DNA of 64,000 nucleotides, taken from positions 5,520,001 to 5,584,000 of the forward strand of contig NC_087245.1 of NCBI RefSeq assembly GCF_037042905.1, read 5' to 3'. Shown here piece after piece: positions 1-29,100 of the stretch; the first letter of the stretch is position 1; the number at the start of each line of letters is the position of its first letter. The stretch is from Lytechinus pictus (Eukaryota). A model generated the notes under the pieces. It was not told the DNA's origin. It worked only from the letters and a program-made list of their open reading frames with translations, and made no database searches. The translations under genes and the position numbers were made by a program.

Positions 1-120
1 GTCTAGTATTGTCTCAAGACAGTGGCTGCAAGATTGGGATGCATGCTGCAGGCTCATTGACCATTCATGTACTGAGAAACTATTGATGCCTGCTGCATGT
101 ACATTCGCATGCAATATATA

Positions 121-1104
121 TGGGGATGTCCCATACGTAACACATTGTCACATACGTAACATTATTTCATTTGCTAATTAAAAATGGGTCTAATTGTTAT
201 TTCTTTTCTTTCTAACCAGTATCTAACTTCTTAACACAATAAATTAGAACTTCCCAGAATAGCACTGCAATAACTTTTACAAATTCAGAAATAAACTAAA
301 AAAATGTCCTCAATTTGTTACGTATGGGACAATCGCTGATAGGACGCGACCTAATTTGCATAATTAATTGCGTCGTGCATAAATTTTCATACCAAATTAA
401 AATAGATGATGAACCTCTTAGGTCCACATATTAATAAAATTTCAATTGTGTTCCTTTAAAGGTGTAGATCAGTAGTGGTTTAGGAACTCGAAATGTATTT
501 GAAATCAGGTTAATGGGTATTTATATAAAGAAAACATCATTAAAGAACTATCGTGGAATTTTGGACACCTAATTTTACTTCTGTGTGATTTTATGAATGA
601 AAAAAGGTTGATCTTGTATCCATCGAAGAGCGAAAATTCGTTCGTAAAATTCAAATATCAATACACACGGCCGTTATCGACTTTTGTACGTGGGCCACGT
701 ACAAAAGTAAATATCTGTTTTCTTTGATATTTCAGCCATTTCTGAACCGATTTTGATCAAATAAACGTGACATTTGTTTAAAATTAATGATCTTACTTCA
801 GTATTTTTAGTTATTTTCATTCCAGCTCCCAAAATAGTTAAATGGTTCCAACGCCCTCTCGCCCACTACTGATCTTCCTCTTTAAATAATAATGATTTTT
901 TATATTTGTCCCATACGTAACACAGCATTTCTAATTTATGCAAATTAAGTCACTGAAATTTGCATAAATTTGCATGATACAATTTATTCCTTCACAGAAT
1001 TTTAAATTTCAACTATCATGCTTCAAAATGACACCAAACATTTCAATGTTGAGCAAAGATGAAATTTTGTCTTCTCAGGGGACCTTATCTTGGACTTGCC
1101 CTCC
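121..1104. mobile_element. Probable non-autonomous DNA transposon remnant (unclassified, TA-flanked), interrupted by the MITE at 460-881
   Basis: Motif TGTCCCATACGTAACA occurs near 127, 146 and 907, and inverted near 317. Boundaries are approximate and the TIRs are weak. Confidence 0.35.
460..881. mobile_element. MITE with TTAA TSD and RR...YY ends (Kolobok-like)
   Basis: TTAA at 456-459 and 882-885. Left TIR AGGTGTAGATCAGTAGTGG versus reverse complement of right end AGAGGAAGATCAGTAGTGG. Confidence 0.75.
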
Positions 1105-1382
1105 TATTGATTGCTACAATTTTAACACATTTGAATGAATCCTTTAAAATTTTCATTGAACATATTTAGCTAAGTAATTAAACATTATAAATGTACAAAG
1201 TCAATATATTTAGTTAGATAAGTATGCTAATTGCCATGTAAAATCTTACAAATCCTAATTCACAGTGAAACCTTGTTATTGGTCAAAATTAACTAAATCC
1301 TGTTATGACGAGGTAATTGCGCTGGTTCACATTCATAAACCATACTTTTTAACTAGTGTCCGATTTGTTATCATTCTGACAG

Positions 1383-1551
1383 AAAAAATCAAATGGACGT
1401 ACGGCAACGGGAAGTGGAACAAGTGGTGAGATAATTGACCTGAAAAAGCAGTTGGAGAAATCAAGGAGAGAGACTGAGGATCTGCAGGTGAAGCTGACTA
1501 AGGAGAAGGCAGTTAGGGAAAAGATACAGCAACAGCTGTTGTTTTTGCAAG
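1383..1551 (+). CDS. BEN-domain gene exon (coiled coil)
   Basis: ctgacag|AAAAAATCA...TTGCAAG|gtacag; KKSNGRTATG...QQQLLFLQ. Confidence 0.7.
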
Positions 1552-4500
1552 GTACAGTATTTCCTCCCATTATTTAGTATTCAAATGCTTGGACAATACC
1601 TCATAGTCATATACCTCACATATTCGTTAAACAAACCTTTAGTTTATGGTGCCCTTTTGAGCCCATTTAAATAATTCATGTTGAATAGTTGGTAAAAAAA
1701 AAAGTTGGAATGAGGGGACTTGTTCCATATGTTAACAACTCTGTATAAGCCTTCTGAACTTTGTGAAATTCATGGAGTGGCTTCTTTTTCTGAGGTATCC
1801 CAATCTCTCAAAGAAGTTTTCTACTTTTTTTTATCTGTGTCATGATCTTATGTTTGTATTAAATCTCCAGCTCTCTTCTCCATTCTAGAGTATTCAGCTT
1901 CGGTTTGGCAAATTTTTCTTCATATAATACCTTCATAGTTTTAAATAGTTCAATTTTTAGTGGTATGAATAAATATCTATGTTATTTTGTTTTTGTTCAA
2001 GGAGTGCCTAAATTCATTGAAACCTTTAAAGGGTTCATAGTGGATATGGAGGAGATGTCGAGACTCAAGGTATGTTGTGAATCTTAAGGGGTGGTCACAC
2101 TGGACATGACTATACCCACGAATTTGCTGTATGCATGTGGTACGAACTAGTGCTCTATGTCTACTGTTCACATATTTGCCAATGCCATGAGAAAGCAGTA
2201 AGAATCCGATAACACTTCCATCAAGAATGGAGAAGAACCAGTACGATGTCTTGCGAACTCAGTATGATTGCAGTAAGAATGGTGGACAATACCTATGACA
2301 TTCTTACTGCAATTGTACCAAGTGTGTAACCCTCGTACTGGTTCTTCTTTCTTGATGGAAGAGTATCGCATATTTACTGCTGTCTCACTGCATTCTTGTG
2401 GCATTCGCAAATATGCATACAGTATGCATTGAGCATATGTAGGTATGGTCGATACATGGCGAACTACGATCGTACAGGTTAATACCGCAGGCAAATGTGT
2501 ACAGCATTTGTGGGTATAGTCATGACTGTGTGATCACTCCTTTAGGCAAAGCGATTCCAGGCCAGCGTGCATTTGTGTTTATGATGAATTACTCTGGATG
2601 GATCGTTATATTGTATAGGTCTATGAAAACTGAATCAGTGGGAATTAGTAACTATTTAGAAGTCATTTTTTAGAGGAGGAAACATGCATGCAAATCTCTT
2701 ATGCTATTTGCTATTTTCTGTTTGCTTTTGTTTCCTTTGATTGCTTGACCTACTTTGCAGTAAAATCTTGGTAAATATTTGATGGTATGAAATATGGATT
2801 TTCGTTTTCATTGGCAGGCTGATCATGAAGAGATGCACTGTCCATCAGGAGGGTCATCTACATCATCCTCGCCCGCTCGTTCCTCCACCCAGTCCTCCAC
2901 CCAATCCTCGCCATCATCAGCACGACCACAGGTAATTACTTCATGTATAAATATTTTAGTTCGACTAAGTGGCCCAGATTCAAAAAGAAAATTTGTACAT
3001 AACCATGATTAACATTGATTACTGCTCGTATACAAGATAACAATTTCTAATTATATGATGGTTCGAGCTTGCAAATCGGCAAAATATTTCAGAAACATTT
3101 ATTTGTTGCATTAAGTGTGTACTGTCAATATTGTTAACAGTATTTAGTCCTCACCAGGCCAGGTTAGTCTATAGCCCGCACCCCCCCCCCCACAAGAAAT
3201 CTCGGCCGCAGAACGCGCCGCCGCCACGAAAGTTGGCACCATAACCTGCGACATAATCTACAAGATTGTAATATTTTTTTGAAAAAATCAGTATTGTTAA
3301 TTATGCAAAATTATGCGAAATCCCTTTTGTCTATAAATCTCGAAATATAATTGACAATATGCTCAATTTGTGCATCATCATATTTTATAACTTATAACAT
3401 GTTTTCAAAATTGCGACAGCCAAATAATTCCTGGTGTATTTCTTTGTTTTTGGAATTTCTTATGTTTTTTTTTTATTTTATTTTATTTTTTATTGTTTGT
3501 TTTTTCGATGGAAAAATTATTTACCATCAGTCAACAATTTTTAGCCCAAAATCAAAAGATAGTTTTGATTGAAAAAAAAATTAATGAAGCTTTTTTCTCT
3601 TATTGGAAAAAAAAATCAGTTTCCATAGGATTTGTACACAAATCACAAAATTTAGCGATTTCCGGGCTAGCAATCGCTTACAAAAGGGTATACACATGGT
3701 CGTTGCGAAATTTGGTCTCATACGATGCGGAAGACTTCGATGAAAAAACTCCTGAAGTCGCGCGGCAATACCTGCGTGCGTTGCAGAATTATCGTGCAAA
3801 AAGTGAGGGGGTGGAATCCAACCCCCGTCCTCCCCTTCCTGCGCACAGTCAAAAGATCCATCTATTTTATCCATCAGTTTACAAATGGTATTTCATAGAT
3901 GTGAACAATGGTTTGTATAAATCTTTGTTAATTTCAACCATTGCATTAAATATGTTACAGTAAATTTACCCTCATTTATGTTGGCCATGATTAAGTCAGT
4001 AGGGTATATCAGCATATAATCACTAACCATGTTGTATTTTCTTAAGTCCCAACAGATTGCCCTTGGATCGAAGGTCTCTCTTAGTCGAAACGTCCTCGAC
4101 AGGTGCAACGCTGGTGATTTTCGCAAGTACACCTGCGATTTGATGCTGGCGGTGTTCGGCAGGCCTACCCTACTGACCTCGTCACTGACTGGTGCGAAGA
4201 ATGTGGCAGGTCGCGCAAAGCCACCTCTGGACAGTGACAAGCTTCAGGGGATAATTAGTAAGTAACAAGACTTAGCTCATTATTGATTAAACATTTGTCA
4301 AGATGTACAATTTTGGTTTTTGTGTTTAAATTTGTCAGCTTTACAAATTTGGTGGGTGCAGATAATATTATGCAATGCCATTAATGTTTCATTTTAATCA
4401 TTAACCCTCCGCTAACAAAGTGGTTGGATTTTAAAATTTTAAAATTTGTACATGTGCACATGAAACCCCTTATAACGAGGTGTTTGGGACCATCGATTTT

Positions 4501-5595
4501 ACCTTGTCATAAGCGGTATCTCGTTATAAACGGCAGATTCAATAACACATATAGAAACACATTTACAATTGGGACCAAAGGATTCTCCTCGTTATAAGCG
4601 GTACAGGGAAACCCCGTTATAACGAACTCGCTTATAACGAGGGGAATCCTTTGGTCCCGATCGTAAATCTGTGTTTTATATGTATTATTAAATCTGCCGT
4701 TTATAACGAAGTACCGCTTAATATAACGAGGTAAATTTGATGGTCCCGACCACCTTGTTAAAACAGGGTTACCTGTACTTCATTATAAGCGAGCTCGTTA
4801 TAACAGGGTTTCCCAATATCATGATCACTTCTGACAGATGTACCCGTCCATTATGTAATTTTTACTCAGATTACAAAGCTACCAGCAATTTTGATTTGAT
4901 AATATTTTCTTCATTCATTGTTCGTTTATAGTGGAAAATGTGTGCCATCATGGACATTACATATTTGGGCAAATTATGTAATGGATCCTGATGGTACACA
5001 TTTTATGAAATAGCTGAACATTTGATGAGCCAAATGTTTGTAAACTTGTAGTGTATAAACTTGTTCATAGCTTTGTATTCAAAGTACAAGTTACATCCTT
5101 TAAATTGTGCGATAGCGGAAGCAGGATTTTTTATAGTTCGCAATCGAAGATCCATCTAGTTCATATTTGTAATGTCTTTGACTCTGGAATAGCCCGTATC
5201 AGCCTACTTATTATAAAAAGATATCACTGCCCAATCTATGCAGGGCTAGTGCTTAGCTTTTTATTTACAGGTGAACATAACACATTAAATATATTTGATC
5301 ATAGACTTGTGTGTTGTAGAACCTAACAAGTTTGTGGCTAATACAGAGCTTCTTTCTTATTTCTAGTGGCCAAATAAAATTTCAAGTGGCCATTGGCACC
5401 CAAGTCGTGCTATGATTCTCATTTACCTACCTTGACTATAATCTTTTTTTTTTGTTTTTTACGTGTTCCTTTGCAGGTCATGTCAAGTCAAAGTTCCCAG
5501 GAGTGTCATCATCGGAAATCCGCATCGTTATAACCGAAAGAGAACCAAGCCAAAGAAAACCAAGCCAAAGAATTAAACCAAGAACCACAAGATGA
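1383..5595 (+). CDS. Spliced coiled-coil + BEN-domain protein (BEND5/insensitive-like architecture), 5' end not identified; exons 1383-1551, 2002-2069, 2818-2931, 4056-4257, 5477-5595
   Basis: Five exons with AG/GT boundaries and compatible phases (1,0,0,1) splice into one open frame: coiled coil IIDLKKQLEKSRRETEDLQVKLTKEK, Ser-rich linker, then the BEN-like motif KYTCDLMLAVFGRPTLLTSSLTG...KPPLDSDKLQGIISHVKSKFP. Confidence 0.75.
2002..2069 (+). CDS. BEN-domain gene exon
   Basis: ttcaag|GAGTGCCT...CTCAAG|gtatgt; (G)VPKFIETFKGFIVDMEEMSRLK; phase matches neighbours. Confidence 0.7.
2087..2541. mobile_element. Palindromic MITE with TTA TSD (PIF/Harbinger-like)
   Basis: TTA at 2084-2086 and 2542-2544. 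About 50-bp TIR AGGGGTGGTCACAC..CATGACTATACCCAC. Inverted symmetry continues inwards (GAAGAACCAGTACGA / TCGTACTGGTTCTTC). Confidence 0.8.
2818..2931 (+). CDS. BEN-domain gene exon (Ser/Pro-rich linker)
   Basis: ttggcag|GCTGAT...CCACAG|gtaatt; ADHEEMHCPSGGSSTSSSPARSSTQSSTQSSPSSARPQ. Confidence 0.7.
3145..3850. mobile_element. Diverged relative of the piggyBac-like MITE at 38472-39199
   Basis: Shares ordered blocks GACATAATCTACAA.ATTGTA, TTTGTACACAAA and AAATTTGGTCTCA, with C-runs near both ends. Termini are degenerate. Confidence 0.5.
4056..4257 (+). CDS. BEN-domain gene exon (main part of BEN domain)
   Basis: caacag|ATTGCC...ATAATTA|gtaagt; IALGSKVSLSRNVLDRCNAGDFRKYTCDLMLAVFGRPTLLTSSLTGAKNVAGRAKPPLDSDKLQGII. 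Confidence 0.8.
4457..4814. mobile_element. Tc1/pogo(Tigger)-like MITE with an inverted copy of the same family nested at 4604-4775
   Basis: Inner copy CAGGGAAACCCCGTTATAAC...GTTAAAACAGGGTTACCTG has TA on both sides (4602-03, 4776-77). Removing it restores CTCGTTATAAGCGGTACTTCATTATAAGCG of the outer copy. Confidence 0.75.
5477..5595 (+). CDS. BEN-domain gene last exon (C-terminus possibly disrupted)
   Basis: ttgcag|GTCATGTC...; (S)HVKSKFPGVSSSEIRIVIT followed by repetitive EREPSQRKPSQRIKPRTTR*. Confidence 0.6.
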
Positions 5596-5627
5596 GACCA
5601 AATGAAGCACTTTGTCAAGATGACTAA

Positions 5628-5774
5628 TTAATTAATAATGAGCTAAGTCTTGTTACTTACTAATTATCCCCTGTTCACTGTCCAGAGGAGGCAAATTTGC
5701 GCGACCTGCCACATTCTTCGCACCATTCAGTGACGAGGTCAGTAACATGGGCCTGCCGAACACTGCCAGCATCA
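5628..5774 (-). pseudogene. Inverted partial duplicate of the BEN exon 3' half plus splice donor and intron start
   Basis: Reverse complement aligns to about 4141-4290: LMLAVFGRPMLLTSSLNGAKNVAGRANLPPLDSEQGII|gtaagtaacaagacttagctcattatt. Confidence 0.85.
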
Positions 5775-7160
5775 GAGGACTTAACAAGCACATGCATATT
5801 CTGTTCCAAATATAATTTAGTATGATCATCATGATGCGACCTATCCGAGTATGCCATGTTTGGTACGTTTCTGGCACTTCTGAATCGCCCGTCGCTCCTG
5901 TGTATTTTTTTGGTTGATTGGAATATGTTTTAGACCACAGGCATTGCTATAATGCTTGCTACAGACCAACATTAAAAAAAATAATAATAATGTTTTAATA
6001 GGGGCCAGAATTATCCTTATCTGATATATTAAAGGTGCTCCTGCATCGTTTATCATACACACAGTGCCATCTTGCGCACAAACTAGCCTAGTTCAAAATG
6101 GCGATCTGTAGCGTAGCATCCCAACGCTTGATGATCTTTAACATTTCACCTGTTTCTAAAGCTATTTTGATAAAAAGCTCTTCATGGGCCATCACATCAA
6201 TTCTAGGCATGTATTGTGTTTTCCGTCCAGCTGGTACTAATATATTAAATTTTATGTTTTGGCATGTGGATATCAAATGACAGTGCGCACGCATCAATCA
6301 GTGTTCTTTGTTGGCACCCTTCTAAACAAATAAGTGTCAAGAACTTTCTTGTTGAGTAAATTTTGATCTGATAAGGAAACAATTTGAGATTTTTTTGTGC
6401 AAAAAATGGCATTTATATATGATCTACGGATAAAAGCCCAAATTCACCTTGAAGAATGGAATCAAATCAGACTAACAAGAAACTACGTCTCTTGGAAGAC
6501 ATCAAAATTTATATGGGGAACCTAAATTGCCTCAAACATGCATTAAAATTTGAGACATTTGGTATTGTTAATCTGGTCTTTAAACAAAAGCGAATGGAAT
6601 TAAAATTGCTTTTGTTATGATTTTGAATGACGGGAATATACCAAATTATTTCATGTTCCTGATTGTTCCGTACTCTATTTGCCAAAGATATTGCTGAAAT
6701 GTATTCATTGTGTGCTGAAAAATAACTTTGATAATGTGTATGCGTTTGACGCCATTTATTTAAGTGGCAAATTTCCTCTCGTCCTTTAAAAACTTTGCCT
6801 TGTGCCAAATAACAAAGTATGCTCATGTAACATTTTAAAGGCATTGTCTTCTATATGTGTACACAATATATTTACCCTACTTATTTGTTGTGTAAGGTCA
6901 CATTGATAAAGTGCTGTAACAAATATTGTTATATTATTGATAGATTATCTGTAGTAGTTATAAAAAAGTACTAAAGTAGAGATGTTAGATATCTTCATGT
7001 TTTTGTTGCAACTCAGTACAGATGTTTTTAACTACAGTTTTGAGATATTATTGATAGATTATCTGCTACAATTTCTACATATATGATTCATTTATTTATT
7101 TATGATTCATTATTTTAAATAATCATATTTTACTTCTATTTACTTACCTTGTCAAAGATT

Positions 7161-7610
7161 TTCTTTGCTCTTCATTACCTATAATATATATTTATGTTCA
7201 GTTTAATTCTCCACTCAATTCAATCTTTATTTGGAAATAAAGATTGAATTGACTGTATTATTCGTGTTAATTATATATTCAAAAAGCTGCATCACTTCGC
7301 CGTGATCCCTCGCATAGGCCTATAAAGTTGATTCTATCCTTTGGGTTTATGTCAGGTTTCTATAGCTTCTGACCATACGAGCATTGAAAGTTAAGGGGTT
7401 TATGGGACGAATTATCGACTAGGGCCGTCCATAGCTCAGTCGGTAGAGCACCGGGCTAGCAATCCGGAGGTCTCGGGTTCGAATCCCGATGGAACCCCAT
7501 TTTCTTTGCTCTTTATTACCTATAATATATATTTATGGTCAGTTTAATTCTCCGCTCAATTCAATCTTTATTTGGAAATAAAGATTGAATTGACTGTATT
7601 ATTCGTGTTA
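7161..7610 (+). mobile_element. tRNA-containing insertion with 112-bp terminal direct repeats and 13-bp TSD
   Basis: Direct repeats 7158-7269 and 7499-7610 (3 mismatches seen). TSD CTTGTCAAAGATT at 7148-7160 and 7611-7623. The empty site is visible in the next tandem unit (~7975). Confidence 0.85.
7425..7497 (+). tRNA. tRNA-Ala(AGC)-like sequence, probably pseudo-tRNA / element-borne Pol III unit
   Basis: A box TAGCTCAGTCGG; anticodon arm CCGGG-CTAGCAA-TCCGG; T arm TCGGG-TTCGAAT-CCCGA; T4 terminator at 7500. Acceptor stem pairs only 4 of 7 (CCGTCCA/TGGAACC). Confidence 0.6.
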
Positions 7611-8407
7611 CTTGTCAAAGATTGGAAGGAACTTGATTGATGTATGTTTTTGTTCCAACTTGGATACAAGTACGTGTTTTACAACTCAACAGTTCTTGAA
7701 AATTTTATAGACTTTATATGAAGCGTAATCTCAACTTGCCTTTACCATAAACATTGTGCTCGAACCTAAAACTCGTTAGTCATAGTAGTTATAAAAAAGT
7801 ACTAAAGTAGAGATGTTAGATATCTACATGTTTTTGTTGCAACTCAGTAGAGATGTTTTTAACTACAGTTTTGAGATATTATTGATAGATTATCTGCTGC
7901 AATTTCTACATATATGATGCATGTGTTTAGTTTTAATGGTTTTAAATAATCATGTTTTACTTCTATTTACTTACCTTGTCAAAGATTGGAAGATTTATGT
8001 TTTTGTTGCAACTTTGATACAAGTACGTGGACAGTGTTTTACAACTCAACAGTTCTTGGAAATTGTATAGACTTTTTATATGAAGCGTAATCTCAACTTG
8101 CCTTCACCACAAACATTGTGCGTGAACCTAAAACTCGTTAGTCATAGTTGTTATAAAAGTACTAAAGTAGAGATGTTAGATATCTTTGTTTTTGTTGCAA
8201 CTCGAGTACAGATGATTTTCACTACAGTTTTTATCATGTAAAATATTAAGCATATAACTTTAACTTGCCTTTACTTCAACCAACCATTCAGCCATTGTGT
8301 GTGCTAAAACTTCAGGAATCCCGTTACCTCAACCAACCATTTAGCCATTGTGTGTGCCAAAACTTAGTCATGTTAGTAAGAAAGTACATGATTACAGATG
8401 TTAAAAC

Positions 8408-8439
<32 letters not shown>

Positions 8440-8537
8440 CTCAAAATAAACTTTTTATAATATTAATACTTTTGTAATTTTCTTATTACTGTGATTAAGC
8501 TAAATGAAATTGTGATCGTTTTCATAAAGGTGTGCAA

Positions 8538-9187
8538 GTACCGCAGTAGCACCAGGGTAGTACCATGGTACAGGTACCACGGTACTATCGCAGTACTATC
8601 GCAGTACAGGTTTACAGGTACAGCGGTACTACTGCGGTACTACCGCAGTACAGGTACCGCGGTACTACCGCAGTACAGGTACCGCGGTACTACCGCAGTA
8701 CCTGTACTGCGGTACTACCGCAGTATAGGTACCGCGGTACTACCGCAGTACAGGTACTGCGGTACTACGGCAGTACTACTGCGGTACTACCGCAGTATAG
8801 GTACCGCGGTACTACCGCAGTACAGGTACTGCGGTACTACCGCAGTACAGGTACTGCGGTAGTACCGCGGTACCTATACTGCGGTAGTACCGCAGTATAG
8901 GTACTGCGGTAGTACCGCGGTACCTATACTGCGGTAGTACCGCAGTATAGGTACCGCGGTACTACCGCAGTACAGGTACTGCGGTACTACCGCAGTACAG
9001 GGTACCTGTACTGCGGTACTACTGCAGTACTACCGCAGTATAGGTACCGTGGTACTACCGCAGTACAGATACTGCGGTACTACCGCGGTACTACCGCAGT
9101 AGTACCGACCAATTTACCACGAGTACTACCGCAGTACTTGTACTGCGGTAGTACTGCGGTACTTGTACCGCAGTACTACCGCAGTAC
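8538..9187. repeat. GC-rich quasi-palindromic minisatellite (about 25-bp unit GTAC(C/T)GCGGTACTACCGCAGTACAG) with internal orientation switches
   Basis: Visible reiteration of GTACTACCGCAGTAC; inverted units GTACTGCGGTAGTAC near 8850-8940 and 9140-9160. Confidence 0.95.
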
Positions 9188-9200
9188 TTTTTTACAAGGG
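9188..9200. mobile_element. Putative terminus of a CACTA/EnSpm-like transposon
   Basis: The array ends in TTTTTTTACAAGGG (reverse complement CCCTTGTAAAAAAA), resembling animal EnSpm/CACTA ends with subterminal repeats. No partner end found in the window. Confidence 0.45.
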
Positions 9201-12831: not shown

Positions 12832-13309
12832 TAGAGGGTAGGCACTTATGATCCAAGTTTGAAAGGAGACTCGTAAAATGACGTCACTCTCGCCGATGAA
12901 TATTCATTAGATCGTGGTCGTGCGTTTTCAATACACACTGCGTGCAGGCATGCAGATAGTTATATGCGAGGAACTTTGGCTCCAGAGACAAGTTGTCAAA
13001 TAACGTGTGTGTGTGTGTGTGCGTGTGTGTATCATCGGCTGGTAGTATTCCATGCTGTCTAAGACTTCAAACGCGTCGGAGAGAGTGCATGGCAATTCGG
13101 TAAAACGAAGTTTCCGATATAAAGAGATAATAAAATAACACTATGTACAGTACGTTGAGAGGCAAATGTCAGATCAGGGGAGGCAGGAGTACAATCAGGT
13201 TTTTTAAGGGAAGAATAGTGTAGAATAAAAGGTATTATATATATAGCCAAATGATCTATAGGTGAGGGAAGTGAACAATGATGTTTTTAAAAAAAGAATG
13301 AATATACCT

Positions 13310-15212
13310 TACGGTGAAGCCAATTTAAAAGGAGGTGAGACAAGTTTCAATGGAGGTTTTAAAAAATAATAAACTGTATTATGGTGAAGCCAATTTAAAA
13401 GGAGGTGAGGCAAGTTTCAATGGAGGTTTTTAAAAAGAATAAACTGTACTACAAATTATGGTGAAGCCAATTTAAAAGGAGGTGAGGCAAGTTTCAATGG
13501 AAGTTTTTAAAAAAGAATAAACTGTACTACAAATTTAAAAGGAGGCGACGCAAGTGTCAATGGAGGTTTTTAAAAAGAATAAACTGTACTACAAATTTAA
13601 AAGGAGGCGAGGCAAGTTTCCTCAATGGAGGTTTTTAAAAAGAATAAACTGTACTACAAATTATGGTGAAGCCAATTTAAAAGGAGGTGAGGCAAGTTTC
13701 AATGGAGGTTTTTAAAAAGAATAAACTGTACTACAAATTATGGTGAAGCCAATTTAAAAGGAGGTGAGGCAAGTTTTAATGGAGGTTTTTAAAAAGAATA
13801 AACTGTATATGGTGAAGCCAATTTAAAAGGAGGTGAGGCAAGTTTCAATGGAGGTTTTTTAAAAGAATAAACTGTACTACAAATTATGGTGAAGCCAATT
13901 TAAAAGGAGGTGAGGCAAGTTTCAATGGAGGTTTTTAAAAAGAATAAACTGTATTATGGTGAAGCCAATTTAAAAGGAGGTGAGGCAAGTTTCAATGGAG
14001 GTTTTTAAAAAGAATAAACTGTATATGGTGAAGCCAATTTAAAAGGAGGTGAGGCAAGTTTCAATGGAGGTTTTTAAAAAGAATAAACTGTACTACAAAT
14101 TATGGTGAAGCCAATTTAAAAGGAGGTGAGGCAAGTTTTAATGGAGGTTTTTAAAAAGAATAAACTGTATATGGTGAAGCCAATTTAAAAGGAGGTGAGG
14201 CAAGTTTCAATGGAGGTTTTTAAAAAGAATAAACTGTACTACAAATTATGGTGAAGCCAATTTAAAAGCCGGAGGTGAGGCAAGTTTCAATGGATCGAGG
14301 TTTTTAAAAAGAATAAACTGTATTATGGTGAAGCCAATTTAAAAGGAGGTGAGGCAAGTTTTAATGGAGGTTTTTAAAAAGAATAAACTGTATATGGTGA
14401 AGCCAATTTAAAAGGAGGTGAGGCAAGTTTCAATGGAGGTTTTTTAAAAGAATAAACTGTACTACAAATTATGGTGAAGCCAATTTAAAAGGAGGTGAGG
14501 CAAGTTTCAATGGAGGTTTTTAAAAAGAATAAACTGTACTACAAATTATGGTGAAGCCAATTTAAAAGGAGGTGAGGCAAGTTTTAATGGAGGTTTTTAA
14601 AAAGAATAAACTGTATTATGGTGAAGCCAATTTAAAAGGAGGTGAGGCAAGTTTCAATGGAGGTTTTTAAAAAGAATAAACTGTATATGGTGAAGCCAAT
14701 TTAAAAGGAGGTGAGGCAAGTTTCAATGGAGGTTTTTAAAAAGAATAAACTGTACTACAAATTATGGTGAAGCCAATTTAAAAGGAGGTGAGGCAAGTTT
14801 CAATGGAAGTTTTTAAAAAAGAATAAACTGTACTACAAATTTAAAAGGAGGCGACGCAAGTGTCAATGGAGGTTTTTAAAAAGAATAAACTGTACTACAA
14901 ATTTAAAAGGAGGCGAGGCAAGTTTCAATGGAGGTTTTTAAAAAGAATAAACTGTACTACAAATTATGGTGAAGCCAATTTAAAAGGAGGTGAGGCAAGT
15001 TTCAATGGAGGTTTTTAAAAAGAACAAACTGTATTACAAATTATGGTGAAGCCAATTTAAAAGGAGGTGAGGCAATTAGTTAATGGAGGTTTTTAAAAAG
15101 AATAAACTGTATTACAAGTTATGGTGAAGGCAATTTGAGAGGAGGTGAGGCATGTCTACAATGATTTTTTTTAAAGAATGATAAGTGTAGAATATAATTC
15201 AAATGATGAAGC
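13310..15212 (+). repeat. Minisatellite array in left foldback arm (units 62/69/70/77 bp, about 26 copies)
   Basis: Unit TATGGTGAAGCCAATTTAAAAGGAGGTGAGGCAAGTTTCAATGGAGGTTTTTAAAAAGAATAAACTGTACTACAAAT. Confidence 0.95.
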
Positions 15213-16625: not shown

Positions 16626-18447
16626 GCTTCATCATTTGAATTATATTCTACACTTATCATTCTTTAAAAAAAAATCATTGTAGACATGCCTCACCTCCTC
16701 TCAAATTGCCTTCACCATAATTTGTAGTACAGTTTATTCTTTTTAAGAACCTCCATCGAAACTTGCCTCGCCTCCTTTTAAATTTGTAGTACAGTTTCTT
16801 CTTTTTAAAAACCTCCATTGACACTTGCCTCACCTCCTTTTAAATTAGCTTCACCATAATTTGTAGTACAGTTTATTCTTTTTAAAAACCTCCATTGAAA
16901 CTTGCCTCGCCTCCTTTTAAATTTGTAGTACAGTTTATTCTTTTTAAAAACCTCCATTGACACTTGCGTCGCCTCCTTTTAAATTTGTAGTACAGTTTAT
17001 TCTTTTTTAAAAACCTCCATTGAAACTTGCCTCACCTCCTTTTAAATTGGCTTCACCATAATTTGTAGTACAGTTTATTCTTTTTAAAAACCTCTATTGA
17101 AACTTGCGTCGCCTCCTTTTAAATTTGTAGTATACCCAGTTGTTGTGTGTCCGGACAGGTTGTGTGTCCGGACGATCAATTTTAGAAAGTCATTTGGAAA
17201 AATTTACAAGCGAAGTTTCATCAATGTTTAGTGCAAAATGTAAGGAAATATTATAGAGAACAAAATGGAAGATGATTACAACTATTGAATTCATATTTTT
17301 AGTGTAATCCAAAGACAAAAAAGAAGGCTTCAAAAATATAAAGTGTCCGGACACCCGACCCCCCATCCTACAGTTTATTCTTTTTTAAAAACCTCCATTG
17401 AAACTTGCCTCACCTCCTTTTAAACTGGCTTCACCATAATACAGTTTATTCTTTTTAAAAACCTCCATTAAAACTTGCCTCACCTCCTTTTAAATTGGCT
17501 TCACCATATACAGTTTATTCTTTTTAAAAACCTCCAATGAAACTTGCCTCACCTCCTTTTAAATTGGCTTCACCATAATACAGTTTATTCTTTTTAAAAT
17601 CCTCCATTAAAACTTGCCTCACCTCCTTTTAAATTGGCTTCACCATAATTTGTAGTACAGTTTATTCTTTTTAAAAACCTATATTGAAACTTGCGTCGCC
17701 TCCTTTTAAATTTGTAGTACAGTTTATTCTTTTTAAAAACCTCCATTGAAACTTTCCTCACCTCCTTTTAAACTGGCTTCACCATAATACACTTTATTCT
17801 TTTTAAAAACCTCAATTGAAACTTGATCACCTCCTTTTAAATTGGCTTCACCATAATTACAGTTTATTTTTTTAAACCTCCATTGAAACTTGCCTCACCT
17901 CCTTTTGAATTGGCTTCACCATAATTTGTAGTACAGTTTATTCTTTTTTAAAAACCTCCATTGAAACTTGCCTCGCCTCCTTTTAAATTGGCTTCACCAT
18001 AATTTGTAGTACAGTTTATTCTTTTTAAAAACCTCCATTGAAACTTGCCTCACCTCCTTTTGAATTGGCTTCACCATAATTTGTAGTACAGTTTATTCTT
18101 TTTTAAAAACCTCCATTGAAACTTGCCTCGCCTCCTTTTAAATTTGTAGTACAGTTTATTCTTTTTAAAAACCTCAATTGAAACTTGCCTCACCTCCTTT
18201 TAAATTGGCTTCACCATAATTTGTAGTACAGTTTATTCTTTTTAAAAACCTCCATTGAAACATGCCTCACCTCCTTTTAAATTGGCTTCACCATAATTCT
18301 TAGTATAGTTTATTTTTTTTAAAAAAACCTCCATTGAATCTTGCCTCACCTCCTTTTAAATTGGCTTCACCATAATACAGTTTATTATTTTTTAAAACCT
18401 CCATTGAAACTTGTCTCACCTCCTTTTAAATTGGCTTCACCGTAAGG
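16626..18447 (-). repeat. Inverted minisatellite array in right foldback arm (about 21 copies)
   Basis: Reverse complement of the left-arm unit; interrupted at 17133-17368. Confidence 0.95.
17133..17368 (+). mobile_element. TA-targeted MITE with GTGTCCGGACAC subterminal motifs and non-matching tips
   Basis: Splits a minisatellite unit at GTAGTA|CAGTTT with TA duplicated (17131-32, 17369-70). Confidence 0.85.
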
Positions 18448-23100: not shown

Positions 23101-26100
23101 GTAATATGATAAAAAGCGTGAATACAATTAATAAAGATTATTACTTATGAAAATTATAACAGATTCAATGAATATCTGAAAAAAAAACATAAAACATTCA
23201 AATCGGTTTTGGATCCCATCTAATTTTGGAAGACTCGGATCCCCGCGGATCAAGGATTTTGATGCCATGTGCGATTTGTATTCTGTATGTGGCCGTGGCG
23301 AGCGCGAGTGCAGTGACACAGAACTTGGTAGACACACCGTCGCGAAATTAATCAACACTTTCAAAAGATCGATGTAGAGATCAAGACTTTGGAAATTATG
23401 GAGTAAAATTGGAATATAAATGTGAATAATCATTTTGCTGTAAGTAAATGAGTTGGACATTATATCAATCCATTCCTGTGGCTTTGTCATTATTAACGTG
23501 ATCTTTTAATAATTTTCTCAATTCGCTCTACGGCAGTGTCATCAGAAATGCATTCAATGAATTCATGTAGATGTACCGGTAGCTATAATAAGGCTGGGGC
23601 CTGGGACGAGATGAAACTAAATTTCGATCGAATTTTTATATTATTTTTGACACACTTTACTTTTGACAAAATAAGTGACAATATCAACTGAAATTCGTAA
23701 CATCTAAATTACATTGCCCAACCCAGTAACCCACGGTACCCCTCTCTTCTCACTTTATTTTTGAGCGTATTTTACTACCATTTTAAAGACGTAAATAATG
23801 AGAGCAATGCGATACGCAAATGCGAGGTAAACACCTAATTCGCACTTCCTACATTTAGACAGTTAAATTGGGCTTCGAGTCGAGGTCGTATCGTATACAG
23901 CAGGGGTTCTCAAACTTTTTCTTTGAAGGGCCAGATGAGACTCCAAGTAAACCTGAAAGGGCCAGGGCAGGGTCAAGTGGATACTTAGAAAAAAAATGTG
24001 CGCGAAGCGCAAAGCCCCTTGCGACCGGGGTCCTAGATCCTCACTTGTGCAATCTGGCCCTTATTTTGGGAGCATTTAATCCAACAAATTTATAACAGTT
24101 TCATGTGGAGCACAGGCAAAATTAGAAAAGATTTCAAAATACAGCAAGAGTCAATAGTGATAATAAGAAAAAATGTGGTACTTTTAAAAAGGAATCTAAA
24201 TTGTACCTATACATACCTGGTATTGAGGAGACAGATAATGTCTTGAAGTATCAATATTTTTTTGTAGTAAAAGTAGATTGAAGAATAGAGTATATATATG
24301 TCTCTTGTAGACTCTAATAAGGGTGTCAGTCTCCTAGTCACTTTCAATGGGAAAAGTGACACTGTCTGTCAGCAACAAGTTGCTTGAACCTTGGCACAAA
24401 AGGTGTAATTGCCAGACGAAGGCATTGGTGCAAATGTTCACTGGTCAAGGTGCTTCGGTATGAGTTCTTTAAAATGTTCATTGTGGAAAATGCACTTTCG
24501 CACCTGTATGTAGATCCAAACATGGTGAGAACAGCGATAGACACTTTGTGCAATGTTGGAAATGATGTTGCTGGAACCATCTTTGTCCAGAAAGTCACAT
24601 GATCACACCTACTCTCCTTCAGAGCCAAATTCTCCTGGAGATCAATCATTTCTGTCTGCAGTTTCCCAGCGTTTGCCCATGGGAAGATGCGTGTGGTCTC
24701 TCTTGAAAGTTCCACAAGGTCCTTCACAAGGAATGGTGACCCGATGCAAAGCAGTACTTGCTTCCCTACACAAAAGTCACTGAAGCGAGATTTGAAATTG
24801 TCAGCCAATTTCTCCAGGAATGAAACATGGTCATGATGATGATTGCCATTAGTGTGACCCAGTAGAGTTGGAAAATGGAGATGTGCCTCTGTGATGTCAT
24901 TCTTGAAGAGCTCCAGTCGCCTCTCAAAAGAACGCACAGCTGTCATCAGGTCACACACAGTACTGCCCTGACCTTGGAGCTTGAGATTAAACTCATTCAA
25001 ATGAGATGTTATGTCCACCAGGAAAGCCACAAGTTCCATTTTGTTGTCATCACGGAGATAGTCCAGGAACTGCCTGGCTTTGGCAGTAGTCTGCTGTGAC
25101 AGAAACATTTCAAGGTCTTTCTTAATGGCCCAGAACCTTCCCAGGACCTGTCCCTTACTTAGCCACCTTACATTGTTATGAAGGAGTAAGTCATCATAGG
25201 ATGCATTGACCTGGTTAGAAAAAGGGAATGATAAGTTTAATAATTTGTGATGGACCATTCTTCATACAGGTGCTTATTCTATTTGTTGATAAAGTTTACA
25301 TTTCTTCCTCCCTGGCCTCTATCTACTTTTTCCTTCAATATTATTGGATTTTTTTTGGGTTTGAACATGTAACAAAAAAGATCTGGAGGTAATGTATCTC
25401 TTTATGTTCTTGTATTTTATGTGAATTTATTTCGCATATTCTGAGATGTTTTATAATAAATTGTACACAAATATTTTCGATTTATTCCACACCAGGTCCA
25501 GATATTTTTCATACTGAGATATACTTAAAGATAATACAAATAATGACGAATAACCAATGTCTTGAAATAGATAAGTATTCTCTTCACCTCATTCAGGAAT
25601 GATCTCAGGAGACGATGCTGAAGTGCAGAAGATGCTCTCAAGTAGTTCACTAGTTTCATAATGGTTTCCATTACATCTGCGTACTCATTCCCAAGACTGG
25701 CACATAATACTGACTGGTGTATGATACAGTGATAGGACAACATGTATGGTTGATGCTCTTTCAAACGGCTAACAACTCCCTTCTGTCTCCCAATCATGGC
25801 TGGCGCACCATCAGTTGCAACTGACACAACTTTCTTGATATCGATTCCTCTGTCTCGTAGCATCTCCATGATGGCTTCATAAATATCCTCTCCTCTTGTA
25901 CGACCAAGCGGGGGTATTAGGCCAAGTATGTCTTCGCAAATTTCAGCTTTGGCCTTACTGAAGTATCTGACGAAGGCACAAAGTTGTGCTTTATCTGTAT
26001 TATCAGTTGATTCATCCAATGCAAGGGCAATGTATTCTGCATTGTTCAAATCACCAGTCAGTTGCTGCAGAACATCATCCGCCAGTAGTTCTGTTCTCCG

Positions 26101-29100
26101 AGTAGAAGTGCTGTTGGATAGTGGAATTTGGTTGAATTTATCTGATAAATCCTGTCTTTCCTTCCCTGTAAACATGGAATCAACAACCTCATTCAAACAT
26201 TCCTTGACTAGTTCTGAATCGGAAAACGGTTTCTTGTTTTTACCCAGAACCCAGGCCACACGGAGGGAAGCTTCAGTTGCTTTTTGTTGTTGTGTCACAC
26301 ATCTAACAAACTGTCTGCTGGAAGATTCATAGGAAGATTTCAACTGATTTATTTTAGTATCCCTTATCTCTGTGTTCTGTGGGTATTGTTGCTCAAATCG
26401 GTTGTGCTTGGAATCGTAGTGACGCTTTAAATTAGCATTTTTAGAAACACTGACAGTTTCCGAGCAAATCAAACACATCGGCCTTGTGCTCGATTGCGGC
26501 AAAATGAATGCATACTTGTCTGTCCATTCTTCATTGAAAACACGATTTTCAGCATCCACCTTTCTTTTCTTTGCAGAATTTGATGCCATCTTGACCTGAC
26601 TAACAATTAATGATGACTAGCGTACCCCTGAGAAAATCCGCAGAACTCAACCAGCAATTTAAGTTTACGTTATAAAGCAAAATTGATCGCAAGCCATGTG
26701 CGAATGTGTGCGCACGTGTTTTCAAATGCAACGTGTTATCAACGTTTGATGTGAAACTACTTTTTCAATTTACCGCAGGTGATCAAATAAGAAAGTAGAA
26801 TAGACAGAAAAGACTCCACTAAACTTTTTTTAAAAGTCAAATTTATTTGACTGCCATTACTTTTATTACGGTTAGGTCTACATGGATACACAATGTAATC
26901 ATATTGAGCTATGAGCTATGTTTCATATTTTTACTTAAAAGTGATAAAAAAAAAAAAAACCAGCAGGGTCTCGCGGGCCGGATTGAGGAGCTCAGCGGGC
27001 CGGATCCGGCCCGCGGGCCGTAGTTTGAGAACCCCTGGTATACAGCATAGTAGCGAAGCAAAGAAATCCCGGGAAGAAATCGTGGAAGAAATAATCGACA
27101 AGTTTATTTTAGGATCTGAAAAGCAGATTGTTTTTCTTTTGAATATATTATTCAGTTTTTAGTGTGGATCTAGGCCTGTTTTACAGTTGTCGGCCACGGT
27201 TGTCGGGGAAGTTCACGGTTGGCGGATTTGCCCTGAACATTTTCAGGGTTGTCGGCGCCCGCCAACCGTGACGCGTGGTAGCGAGAACGTTGTACTTACT
27301 AACCTCGCACAACGCTAACCCAGGGAGCTTCCGCCCGCACAGCGGGCGGGAGCCCAGGAGCTTACCGTGTATTTGACCATAGTCACCGGACTAGGGTGAT
27401 TTATGGTCTAAATATTTCTCCAAATGAATTGTGAAAACAGAAAGTATACAATTACCACGATTATGTGGATGAAGGTCCAACGAGTGGCAGTTTCCTGAGA
27501 TCTGGGCACAGACTGGAACCTCAAAAAACCGAAACGTTATCTCCTTCTACCCCCGTTTCGATCGGCCATTTTTGTTAAAAATCGTAACAAAATGGCCGAT
27601 CGAGACTGGGGTAGAGGAGATAACTTTTCGTTTTTTTGAGGTTCCAGTCTGTGCCCAGATCTCAGAAAACTGCCACTCGTTAGACCTTCATCCATATAAT
27701 CGTGGTAATTGTATACTTTCTGTTTTCACAATTCATTTGGAGAAATATTTAGACCATAAATCACCCTAGTCCGGTGACTATGGTCAAATACATGGTAAGC
27801 CCCTGGGCTCCTGCCCGCTGCGCGGGCGGGAGCTCCCTGGGTTAGCACAACGCATGTCATTTCATAATGAATTTTGACGTTTTCATTCATCACATGAATG
27901 TGAGAGAATACCGTATTACTGTCTATGGGTACTAGTATTCAACCCGGCATAATTCAAAGATTTTGACATATTCCCCAAAATATTTAGAAATAGGGAATTT
28001 ATCTTAATTTCATACCTTTGTTATTTCCAGGGTAATCTGTTGTCGATATTTTCTTTGTCAATCTGTCGACTGTATGCGCGGAGGATCGAATTATGCGGCG
28101 ATGGCCTTTTGCACTGAATGGTACTAGTATTCAACCTAGTGAGGATTGATAGCAAATCTCAAAAGGGTTTAGATTGCTAAATTAGATCTAGATCTATGTA
28201 AGTCTCTGGCTTTGATTAATTCCCTGTTTGGTCCCATCTCAAATGGTCTAGTCCATAGTCGGATGGGACAAGGGCAGATTGAGAAACAGGGCCATCTTTC
28301 ATCGCCAGGTTGAATACTAGTACCGAAGGGTTCAATACTAGACTACTAGTACCAAAATCCGTCGCCGTATAATTCGATCGCCCGCGCACACAGTTAACTG
28401 GTTGAAGAAAAAAATAACGGAAAAAGAATAACCAGCATTTGCTCTTGGAAATAGACGGGTCTGAAATTCAGGTAAATTCTATATTTCTATATATTTGAGG
28501 AAACTCACCAAACGGGTTGAATACTAGTGCACTTACGGTAAGTATAGTGAGTGATTGTATTATTACCGACCGGCCTTGTATTACCGAACGCGTGCATCAT
28601 ACGCATCAGAAAATAATTTCATACGCTAAAAATTTTGCGACATCCTTCCAAAGAGAACTTGAATAGAAAGATGATGAAAAATGGTCAAAAACACATTTTC
28701 AAAGTCTTAATATTCTAAAAATAATAAAATATGGTCAAAATAGCTCATCATCAGTGATTTTGTAGTTTTCTCAACGTTTCCATAGAAAACACACGTTCGG
28801 TAATACGATACCTTTTTCAAGTGACCAAAATATTTCATATGCGGAGAGGGGTCCAATTGGAAGCTTATATTGTAAAAAGGAAAAACGATTTCGGCAAAAT
28901 TTTCATATATTTATATTTTGTAGGTAATTGTGTATTTATGGTGAAAGTTTGGTGAATTTCATGAGAATAATGTATTTGATATGATTGAATTCATGAAAAG
29001 TGTTTGGTATTACGATCCACTACCATATAACACACGCCAAAATCTTCACAATATACTAAATTTATTCATCTAAATCTGTTCATTGAATTAATTTTTAAAA

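Follow-up and report, generated by a model that had tools for sequence, protein, structure and literature searches.

The window analyzed here, a 64,000-nucleotide stretch of the Lytechinus pictus genome, carries at 7161–7610 a 450-bp insert that corresponds to one full 341-bp unit plus 109 bp (1.32 units; Table 1), as the first-pass annotation had proposed in describing a 450-bp insertion of about 1.3 units. Its direct repeats (7158–7269 and 7499–7610) align over 112 nt with three substitutions (97% identity), and, again as first described, each holds a perfect 18-bp hairpin; in 500 shuffles of the unit, the longest stem reached 10 bp. The insert is flanked by a 13-bp target site duplication (TSD), and the same 13-mer occurs exactly three times in the window, at 7148, at 7611, and at 7975, the last in a repeat unit that shares 94.6% identity with the filled unit; these three occurrences uphold the earlier claim of a 13-bp TSD with an empty site in the neighboring unit. 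The trinucleotide ATT is at once the first 3 nt of the left repeat copy and the last 3 nt of the TSD, and the left repeat starts 0 to 3 nt past the point that corresponds to the tRNA 3′ end, these 3 nt being microhomologous to the TSD. The insertion ends 111 nt downstream of the tRNA-like module and has no 3′ tail. In keeping with a sea urchin genome, a gene nearby shares 98% identity with a Lytechinus protein.

Table 1. Features of the insert and its surroundings (window coordinates)
Feature	Position	Strand	Remarks
Host DNA transposon, right part	1..9200	+	Begins 6,487 bases before the window; G000:C1:5513513-5529200
Left TSD, 13 bp, ends in ATT	7148..7160	+	Same on both sides in 20/21 genomic copies
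Left direct repeat (pseudo-LTR), 5′-truncated second unit	7161..7269	+	
Perfect 18-bp hairpin, AATAAA on each strand; subfamily-specific	7215..7252	.	
Core 5′ module, conserved, folding into a small hairpin (C(UUCG)G tetraloop in relatives)	7281..7315	+	
Masking segment (predicted) upstream of the tRNA	7379..7425	+	
tRNA-like module, Thr/Ala type, anticodon AGC, A and B boxes	7425..7499	+	ARAGORN, Rfam
T4 run plus 8 nt; relatives keep the sequence to exactly 7511	7500..7511	+	
Right direct repeat, second hairpin at 7556-7593	7500..7610	+	
Right TSD	7611..7623	+	
Empty site, single 13-mer in the adjoining ~360-bp host repeat unit	7975..7987	+	

The tRNA-like module occupies nt 265 to 339 of the insert and is called by ARAGORN as tRNA-Ala(AGC) at 7426–7499 and by Rfam as a match to RF00005 (55.8 bits, E 7.9e-11, model positions 4–67 of 71). 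The T4 that follows it at 7500–7503 is the sole run of at least four T on the + strand. Read off the sequence, the acceptor stem forms four of seven pairs and lacks the 7-bp stem of a functional tRNA gene, so the module is tRNA-like rather than chargeable; its assignment to Ala is incidental, with part of the depth in the relatives described below reading AGT. The tRNA-Ala(AGC)-like cloverleaf of the first-pass annotation stands as regards the two program calls and the T4 after it.

A genome search returned 21 full-length copies of the insert, 16 of them identical, four with one substitution and one with a one-base insertion. The flanks are the same in 21/21 copies and the intact TSD in 20/21, and the sequence common to all copies extends into an ~14-kb element with TIRs. 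This host element measures 13,972 to 16,134 bp at eight loci, has 21-bp TIRs beginning CCC and 25-bp subterminal repeats (window 8568–9187), and is bordered by a 2-bp TSD at six of the eight loci with both ends in view. EnSpm/CACTA elements are recognized by a short TIR starting CCC or CAC, subterminal repeats, and a 2- to 3-bp TSD, and on these grounds we take the host to be EnSpm/CACTA-like. It contains a BEN-domain exon at 4020–4262 (Pfam); the four ORF pieces scanned with Pfam, from a gene with short exons, gave BEN only and no transposase. All 21 host copies are filled by the insert, and 40 of 40 exact TIR matches were located at the 21 host loci. Because the copies have common flanks inside this transposon, they reflect one insertion event: the 21 inserts are a single retro-insertion multiplied as DNA transposon cargo. 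The two repeats of the insert have diverged by 2.7% (3/112) versus an average of 0.17% among host copies, which makes the insertion older than the spread of the host.

With all 21 copies riding at one transposon site, the mobile mini-element family first proposed for this genome does not materialize. Neither DNA search nor sequence patterns revealed a free copy of the insert in this genome, and its core, tRNA, hairpin, junction, and 3′ end are found nowhere else in it except for one relic (L022:1501-1573; 79% identity) comprising the tRNA 3′ half and the junction, from which it follows that the insert's family once existed outside the host element. The candidate free copies that were checked from patterns with two to three mismatches resolved into nine chance loci and six loci that are ordinary SINEs or a tRNA-His array.

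The host family itself appears young, with 21 copies, 0.17% divergence, and a spliced, transcribed BEN-domain gene. The genome yielded no older subfamily of the host element, which may have arrived recently from another species. An inverted partial duplicate of the BEN exon lies on the minus strand at 5656–5800 and could form a long hairpin with it in the host pre-mRNA, and a segment of ~1.26 kb that includes the BEN exon (3208–4465) occurs in a minority of host copies, that of the window among them.

Close relatives of the insert's core are found in three other organisms and are very abundant in one of them. Twenty public runs contain part of it, and for four of the 12 small-share runs (X9, X10, X13, and X16) contigs were compared with the insert. 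X10 (organism C) contributes 1481 matching contigs with a summed depth of up to 9e5, X13 (organism D) 31, and X16 (organism E) 13. The relatives in these three organisms cover 7280–7511, colinear with the insert, and likeness ends sharply at 7511 in 138, 9, and 3 contigs, respectively. At 80% likeness, the 18-bp hairpin is left uncovered, and the hairpin cannot be kept as a defining part of the element, the role that it had been given at first. A 2-nt deletion at 7300 accounts for 97,363 of 98,542 depth in X10, and the two missing bases turn the + strand loop into a C(UUCG)G tetraloop. X10 depth declines from the tRNA 3′ side toward the 5′ module (7495, 625k; 7426, 177k; 7312, 98k), a gradient that is consistent with 5′ truncation of a tRNA-sense RNA and that divergence could equally give; contig depth here is no measure of copy number.

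Other matches in the public runs are of a different kind. X9 (organism B) holds mostly generic tRNA pieces and two low-depth pieces of the host repeat (window 7113–7680), one of the filled and one of the empty-site type, which may come from either a related species or contamination. One 4,347-nt contig of X10 (record 8) matches 7432–7531 near its end; it may represent one locus or an element of greater length that includes the module. Matches in metagenomes (52/52) and prokaryotes (34/34), considered as readable relatives, were all attributable to chance, and further searches for readable relative loci gave 0 matches.

The region conserved in the relatives includes a segment predicted to mask the tRNA-like module. 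In the recurring predicted fold, 7379–7401 pairs with 7492–7511, a stretch made up of the 3′ acceptor strand, the T4, and the 8 nt beyond, and the D arm is paired with 7413–7425; position 7511 is both the last paired base of the masking helix and the point at which likeness to the relatives ends. The gain in masking with 50 nt upstream included has a z of −5.8, with 0/300 shuffles as good; with 100 nt upstream it is weaker (z −3.3), and the duplex is matched in 19/300 shuffles. The controls, a pair of SINE heads (L256 and L262) and a pair of tRNA-His genes, gave z values of −1.7 to +0.6. Common changes in the relatives at 7388 and 7390 swap A-U and G-U with the pairs kept, though these represent few events. 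Modeling thus predicts that the 50 nt before the tRNA would pair with and hide it in RNA. Folded as circles, the + strand scores a z of −5.3 versus −2.8 for the − strand, and this better fold, the UUCG tetraloop of the relatives, and the depth gradient in X10 together favor the + strand as sense. A rod model, in which the sequence upstream of the tRNA pairs with the downstream repeat, was rejected, as 462/500 shuffles were as good.

The same genome harbors a second tRNA-carrying family, with a 406-bp unit and a TCA-tRNA, for which we found 2,338 exact marker matches. Its ends were mapped at 55 loci drawn from the first 100 matches listed, one overlapping locus being dropped. Among these matches, two fixed sites account for the ends of 80 of 91 arms (36 + 44), the 5′ ends are scattered over the 55 loci, 27/55 loci are arranged head-to-head, and 18/55 are longer than one unit. 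Fixed 3′ ends, scattered 5′ ends, and inversions clearly mark the insertions of this family as Penelope-type. Like the insert, it carries its tRNA in the sense orientation, with masking predicted from the 50 nt before it (z −6.2) and a T-run after it, forms partial tandems, and has its 3′ end some 100 to 110 nt downstream of the tRNA; the inner 3′ end, whose position is made imprecise by TA repeats, lies 102 to 109 nt after the tRNA, as against 111 nt in the insert. Unlike the insert, which is one cargo insertion with a clean TSD, the 406-bp family is abundant and targets TA microsatellites. Among the matches listed, 63 of 80 fixed ends fall inside such microsatellites, which renders the TSD lengths of this family unreadable. 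Outside the tRNA, the two families have no detectable sequence homology (best z 1.5), so what is transferred from one to the other is a mechanism by design and not by descent.

RNA data for the locus are sparse. In three rRNA-depleted runs from organism A, sampled at ~6%, 66 reads fall on 5400–8399; most have the direction of the host transcript, with a small rise over 7200–7700, and the host transcript explains them. None contains a back-joint of the kind expected from an RNA circle, a form in which non-LTR retrozymes are abundant, so that, at the very low coverage of the three runs, the circular RNA template proposed in the first-pass annotation is not supported; the 66 reads neither show nor exclude a Pol III transcript or a circle. 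A spliced host-transcript contig (X1) runs into the left repeat, which places the insert in the 3′ part of the host transcript. Contig depth in X1 is 63 in the host transcript (to 7243) and 8 over 7214–7584, past which there is none. The positions of the breaks are graph artefacts, but the drop in depth hints that the insert's AATAAA (7236–7241) now terminates the host BEN transcript.

We consider it about two-thirds probable (0.68) that the insert goes back to one old event, in which a Penelope-like element (PLE) enzyme wrote a gene-less masked-tRNA element as a partial tandem, and that it was then carried as transposon cargo to 21 copies. The insert itself contributes to this reading a pseudo-LTR partial tandem and, in one event, a long TSD that ends in ATT and has an empty site. 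Fixed 3′ ends, tails, and inversions come into the case by analogy with the 406-bp family, which makes PLE writing of the insert likely; the Penelope- or retrozyme-like partial-tandem architecture suggested at first is supported in this same, largely analogical way. Two further features were looked for. The 112-bp repeat, which the first-pass annotation suggested seeking at the ends of Penelope-like RT/GIY-YIG elements, has with its 3′ end no other occurrence in this genome, on such an autonomous element or elsewhere. Nor did a ribozyme emerge in the insert: motif scans for hammerhead, HDV-like, and twister ribozymes were negative, Rfam gave no ribozyme family at E ≤ 1, and CUGANGA, which we take to be the hammerhead core motif, is absent from both strands. 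Our best reading is that the insert is a ribozyme-free, nonautonomous, Penelope-type element that is retrozyme-like, with a masked tRNA in place of the hammerhead.

This reading draws on what has been described for PLEs. Their insertions include partial tandems, tails, and inversions (PMC8557442), their pseudo-LTRs come with 8- to 10-bp TSDs, 18/38-bp palindromes, and 5′ microhomology (PMC3846280), and the enzyme is reported to have a cleavage preference for ATT and two internal RT starts, with the ribozyme dispensable in vitro (PMC11167929); tails and inversions are the PLE signature because of the two internal RT starts after the ATT cut (PMC8557442, PMC11167929). The insert resembles nonautonomous PLEs (MRC1/Chlamys) and the units of EN+ PLEs in its pseudo-LTR partial tandem, long TSD, ATT cut, palindrome in the repeat, and 5′ microhomology (PMC8557442, PMC3846280, PMC11167929). 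It differs from them, as described there, in its internal tRNA-like module, and no autonomous element found in this genome has a 3′ end in common with it. With the animal non-LTR retrozymes, it shares a noncoding, low-GC unit of ~300 bp, more than one unit per insertion, a TSD above 4 bp, structured RNA, and attribution to PLEs (PMC7229834; bioRxiv 10.64898/2026.07.22.740005), its 341-bp unit lying within the 150 to 450 bp of low-GC tandem units of retrozymes; it departs from them in that the masked tRNA-like module replaces the type I hammerhead present in each retrozyme unit (PMC7229834). The main text of the preprint on retrozymes mentions neither tRNA nor Pol III (bioRxiv 10.64898/2026.07.22.740005). 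In the SINE-like hammerhead tandems of schistosomes, the Pol III promoter likewise sits near the 3′ end of the unit, so that a full-unit transcript can arise only from tandems, but there multimers are cut by the hammerhead that the insert lacks (PMC6765202). Helenus, Ajax, and Cassandra (TRIMp3) are similarly short and gene-less, with direct repeats and a promoter derived from a small RNA, and differ in having the tRNA inside the LTR, a PBS, a PPT, and 4- to 5-bp TSDs (PMC10886601).

The proposed route to the insert has five steps. A tandem master would be transcribed in the tRNA sense into an RNA that exceeds one unit in length, probably from the A and B boxes of the tRNA of an upstream unit with read-through of the weak T4, or else from an outside promoter. 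Each tRNA in this RNA is predicted to have its D arm and acceptor strand, along with the T4, paired to the preceding 50 nt, an arrangement that is kept in the relatives and would hide the cloverleaf. A PLE enzyme would then cut the target with a 13-nt stagger and start cDNA internally, from a fixed position ~110 nt past the tRNA. Judging from the structure of the insert, synthesis would have proceeded for 1.32 units before the cDNA joined the target at the 3′ boundary of the next tRNA, using 3 nt of microhomology and leaving the pseudo-LTRs. The target was a repeat unit in the EnSpm/CACTA-like element, which later spread; the insert has not been seen moving since.

The template might instead have been a unit-length circle or a processed multimer, generated by host tRNA-processing enzymes, with the 5′ end at the tRNA 3′ boundary marking an RNase Z-type cut. 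We regard this as fairly unlikely, and it is a variant compatible with PLE writing rather than an exclusive alternative. Retrozymes are described as circularizing via RtcB (PMC7229834), and the 5′ junction of the insert lies 0 to 3 nt from the tRNA 3′ end, but the 3-nt microhomology suffices to explain that junction, and masking would impede recognition as a tRNA. In the 406-bp family, six of the 31 5′ ends at positions 40 to 120 fall at 70 to 76 where 2.7 are expected (p 0.047); this window was picked post hoc, however, and one of 72 to 76 gives three versus 1.9 (p 0.30). The failure to find a back-joint in three RNA runs, at low depth, also weighs against a circle.

The remaining alternatives dispense with a PLE. 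A head-to-tail dimer of a tRNA-headed SINE, of which a LINE enzyme copied and truncated the read-through RNA, seems to us improbable. LINE-type priming is compatible with a 13-bp TSD and 5′ microhomology, both seen here, and SINEs L256 and L262 of this genome also have a short T-run after the tRNA head. The insert, however, has no 5′ tRNA head and no A, LINE-like, or simple-repeat tail, its 3′ end falls mid-unit, and the sequence before its tRNA is conserved, colinear, and complementary to the tRNA, which is not so in L256 or L262. We think it very improbable that the insert is a piece of a tandem tRNA-gene array caught where DNA had broken with staggered ends. A tRNA-His tandem of similar period exists in this genome (L263, G000:C20:9812096-9815125; 358-bp spacing), and unassembled arrays are possible; against this stand a broken acceptor stem, an assembly without an array or other gene of this sequence, and a spacer that, unlike the His spacer, is structured, tRNA-masking, and conserved across organisms. 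We give least credence, and very little, to a minus-strand TRIM-like LTR element primed by its own tRNA from the TGG directly after the first repeat. On that strand the complement of the tRNA 3′ end does directly follow the repeat, but the TSD is 13 bp and not 4 to 6 bp, the ends are not TG..CA, no polypurine tract is present, and the structural signals favor the + strand; moreover, the tRNA lies outside the repeats, unlike in Helenus as described (PMC10886601). That the insert is neither a standard SINE nor a TRIM, on account of its internal tRNA, missing tail, 13-bp TSD, and ends without TG..CA, agrees with what was first proposed.

The masked-tRNA, PLE-written element that we favor would add a second, sequence-unrelated family to a design in which a masked tRNA replaces the ribozyme of a PLE-type nonautonomous element. 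That two families show the same masking, and that relatives in three other organisms preserve it, suggests selection acting on RNA structure. A broader and more doubtful proposal is that an undescribed class of retrozymes without a ribozyme is widespread among marine invertebrates. In this class, the tRNA would provide a Pol III promoter and a boundary at which host tRNA-processing enzymes cut the multimer, and the upstream antisense strand would switch the RNA between a cloverleaf open to processing and a protected rod copied by a Penelope enzyme; the insert's family and the 406-bp family would then be either independent inventions or very old branches of this tRNA-for-hammerhead design. We found no published description of the insert's family or class, in line with the poorly described class suspected initially, and no motif matches in the supplements of PMC5786205 and PMC8557442; Repbase or Dfam may hold the family as SINE2 or as unclassified. 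Masked-tRNA elements inflate tRNA gene counts and are easily misfiled as SINEs, TRIMs, or satellites, and copy number is misleading in this instance, since a DNA transposon has turned one retro-insertion into 21 near-identical copies. The insert goes back to a single old event and is a weak test object; the abundant relatives in organism C are suited to tests of mechanism. Finally, elsewhere in the window, two ORF pieces of a hAT (Spin/Buster-like) transposase lie on the minus strand at 24344–26616, and long inverted arrays of 62- to 77-bp repeats are found near or around this transposase at 13309–15152 and 16687–18446.
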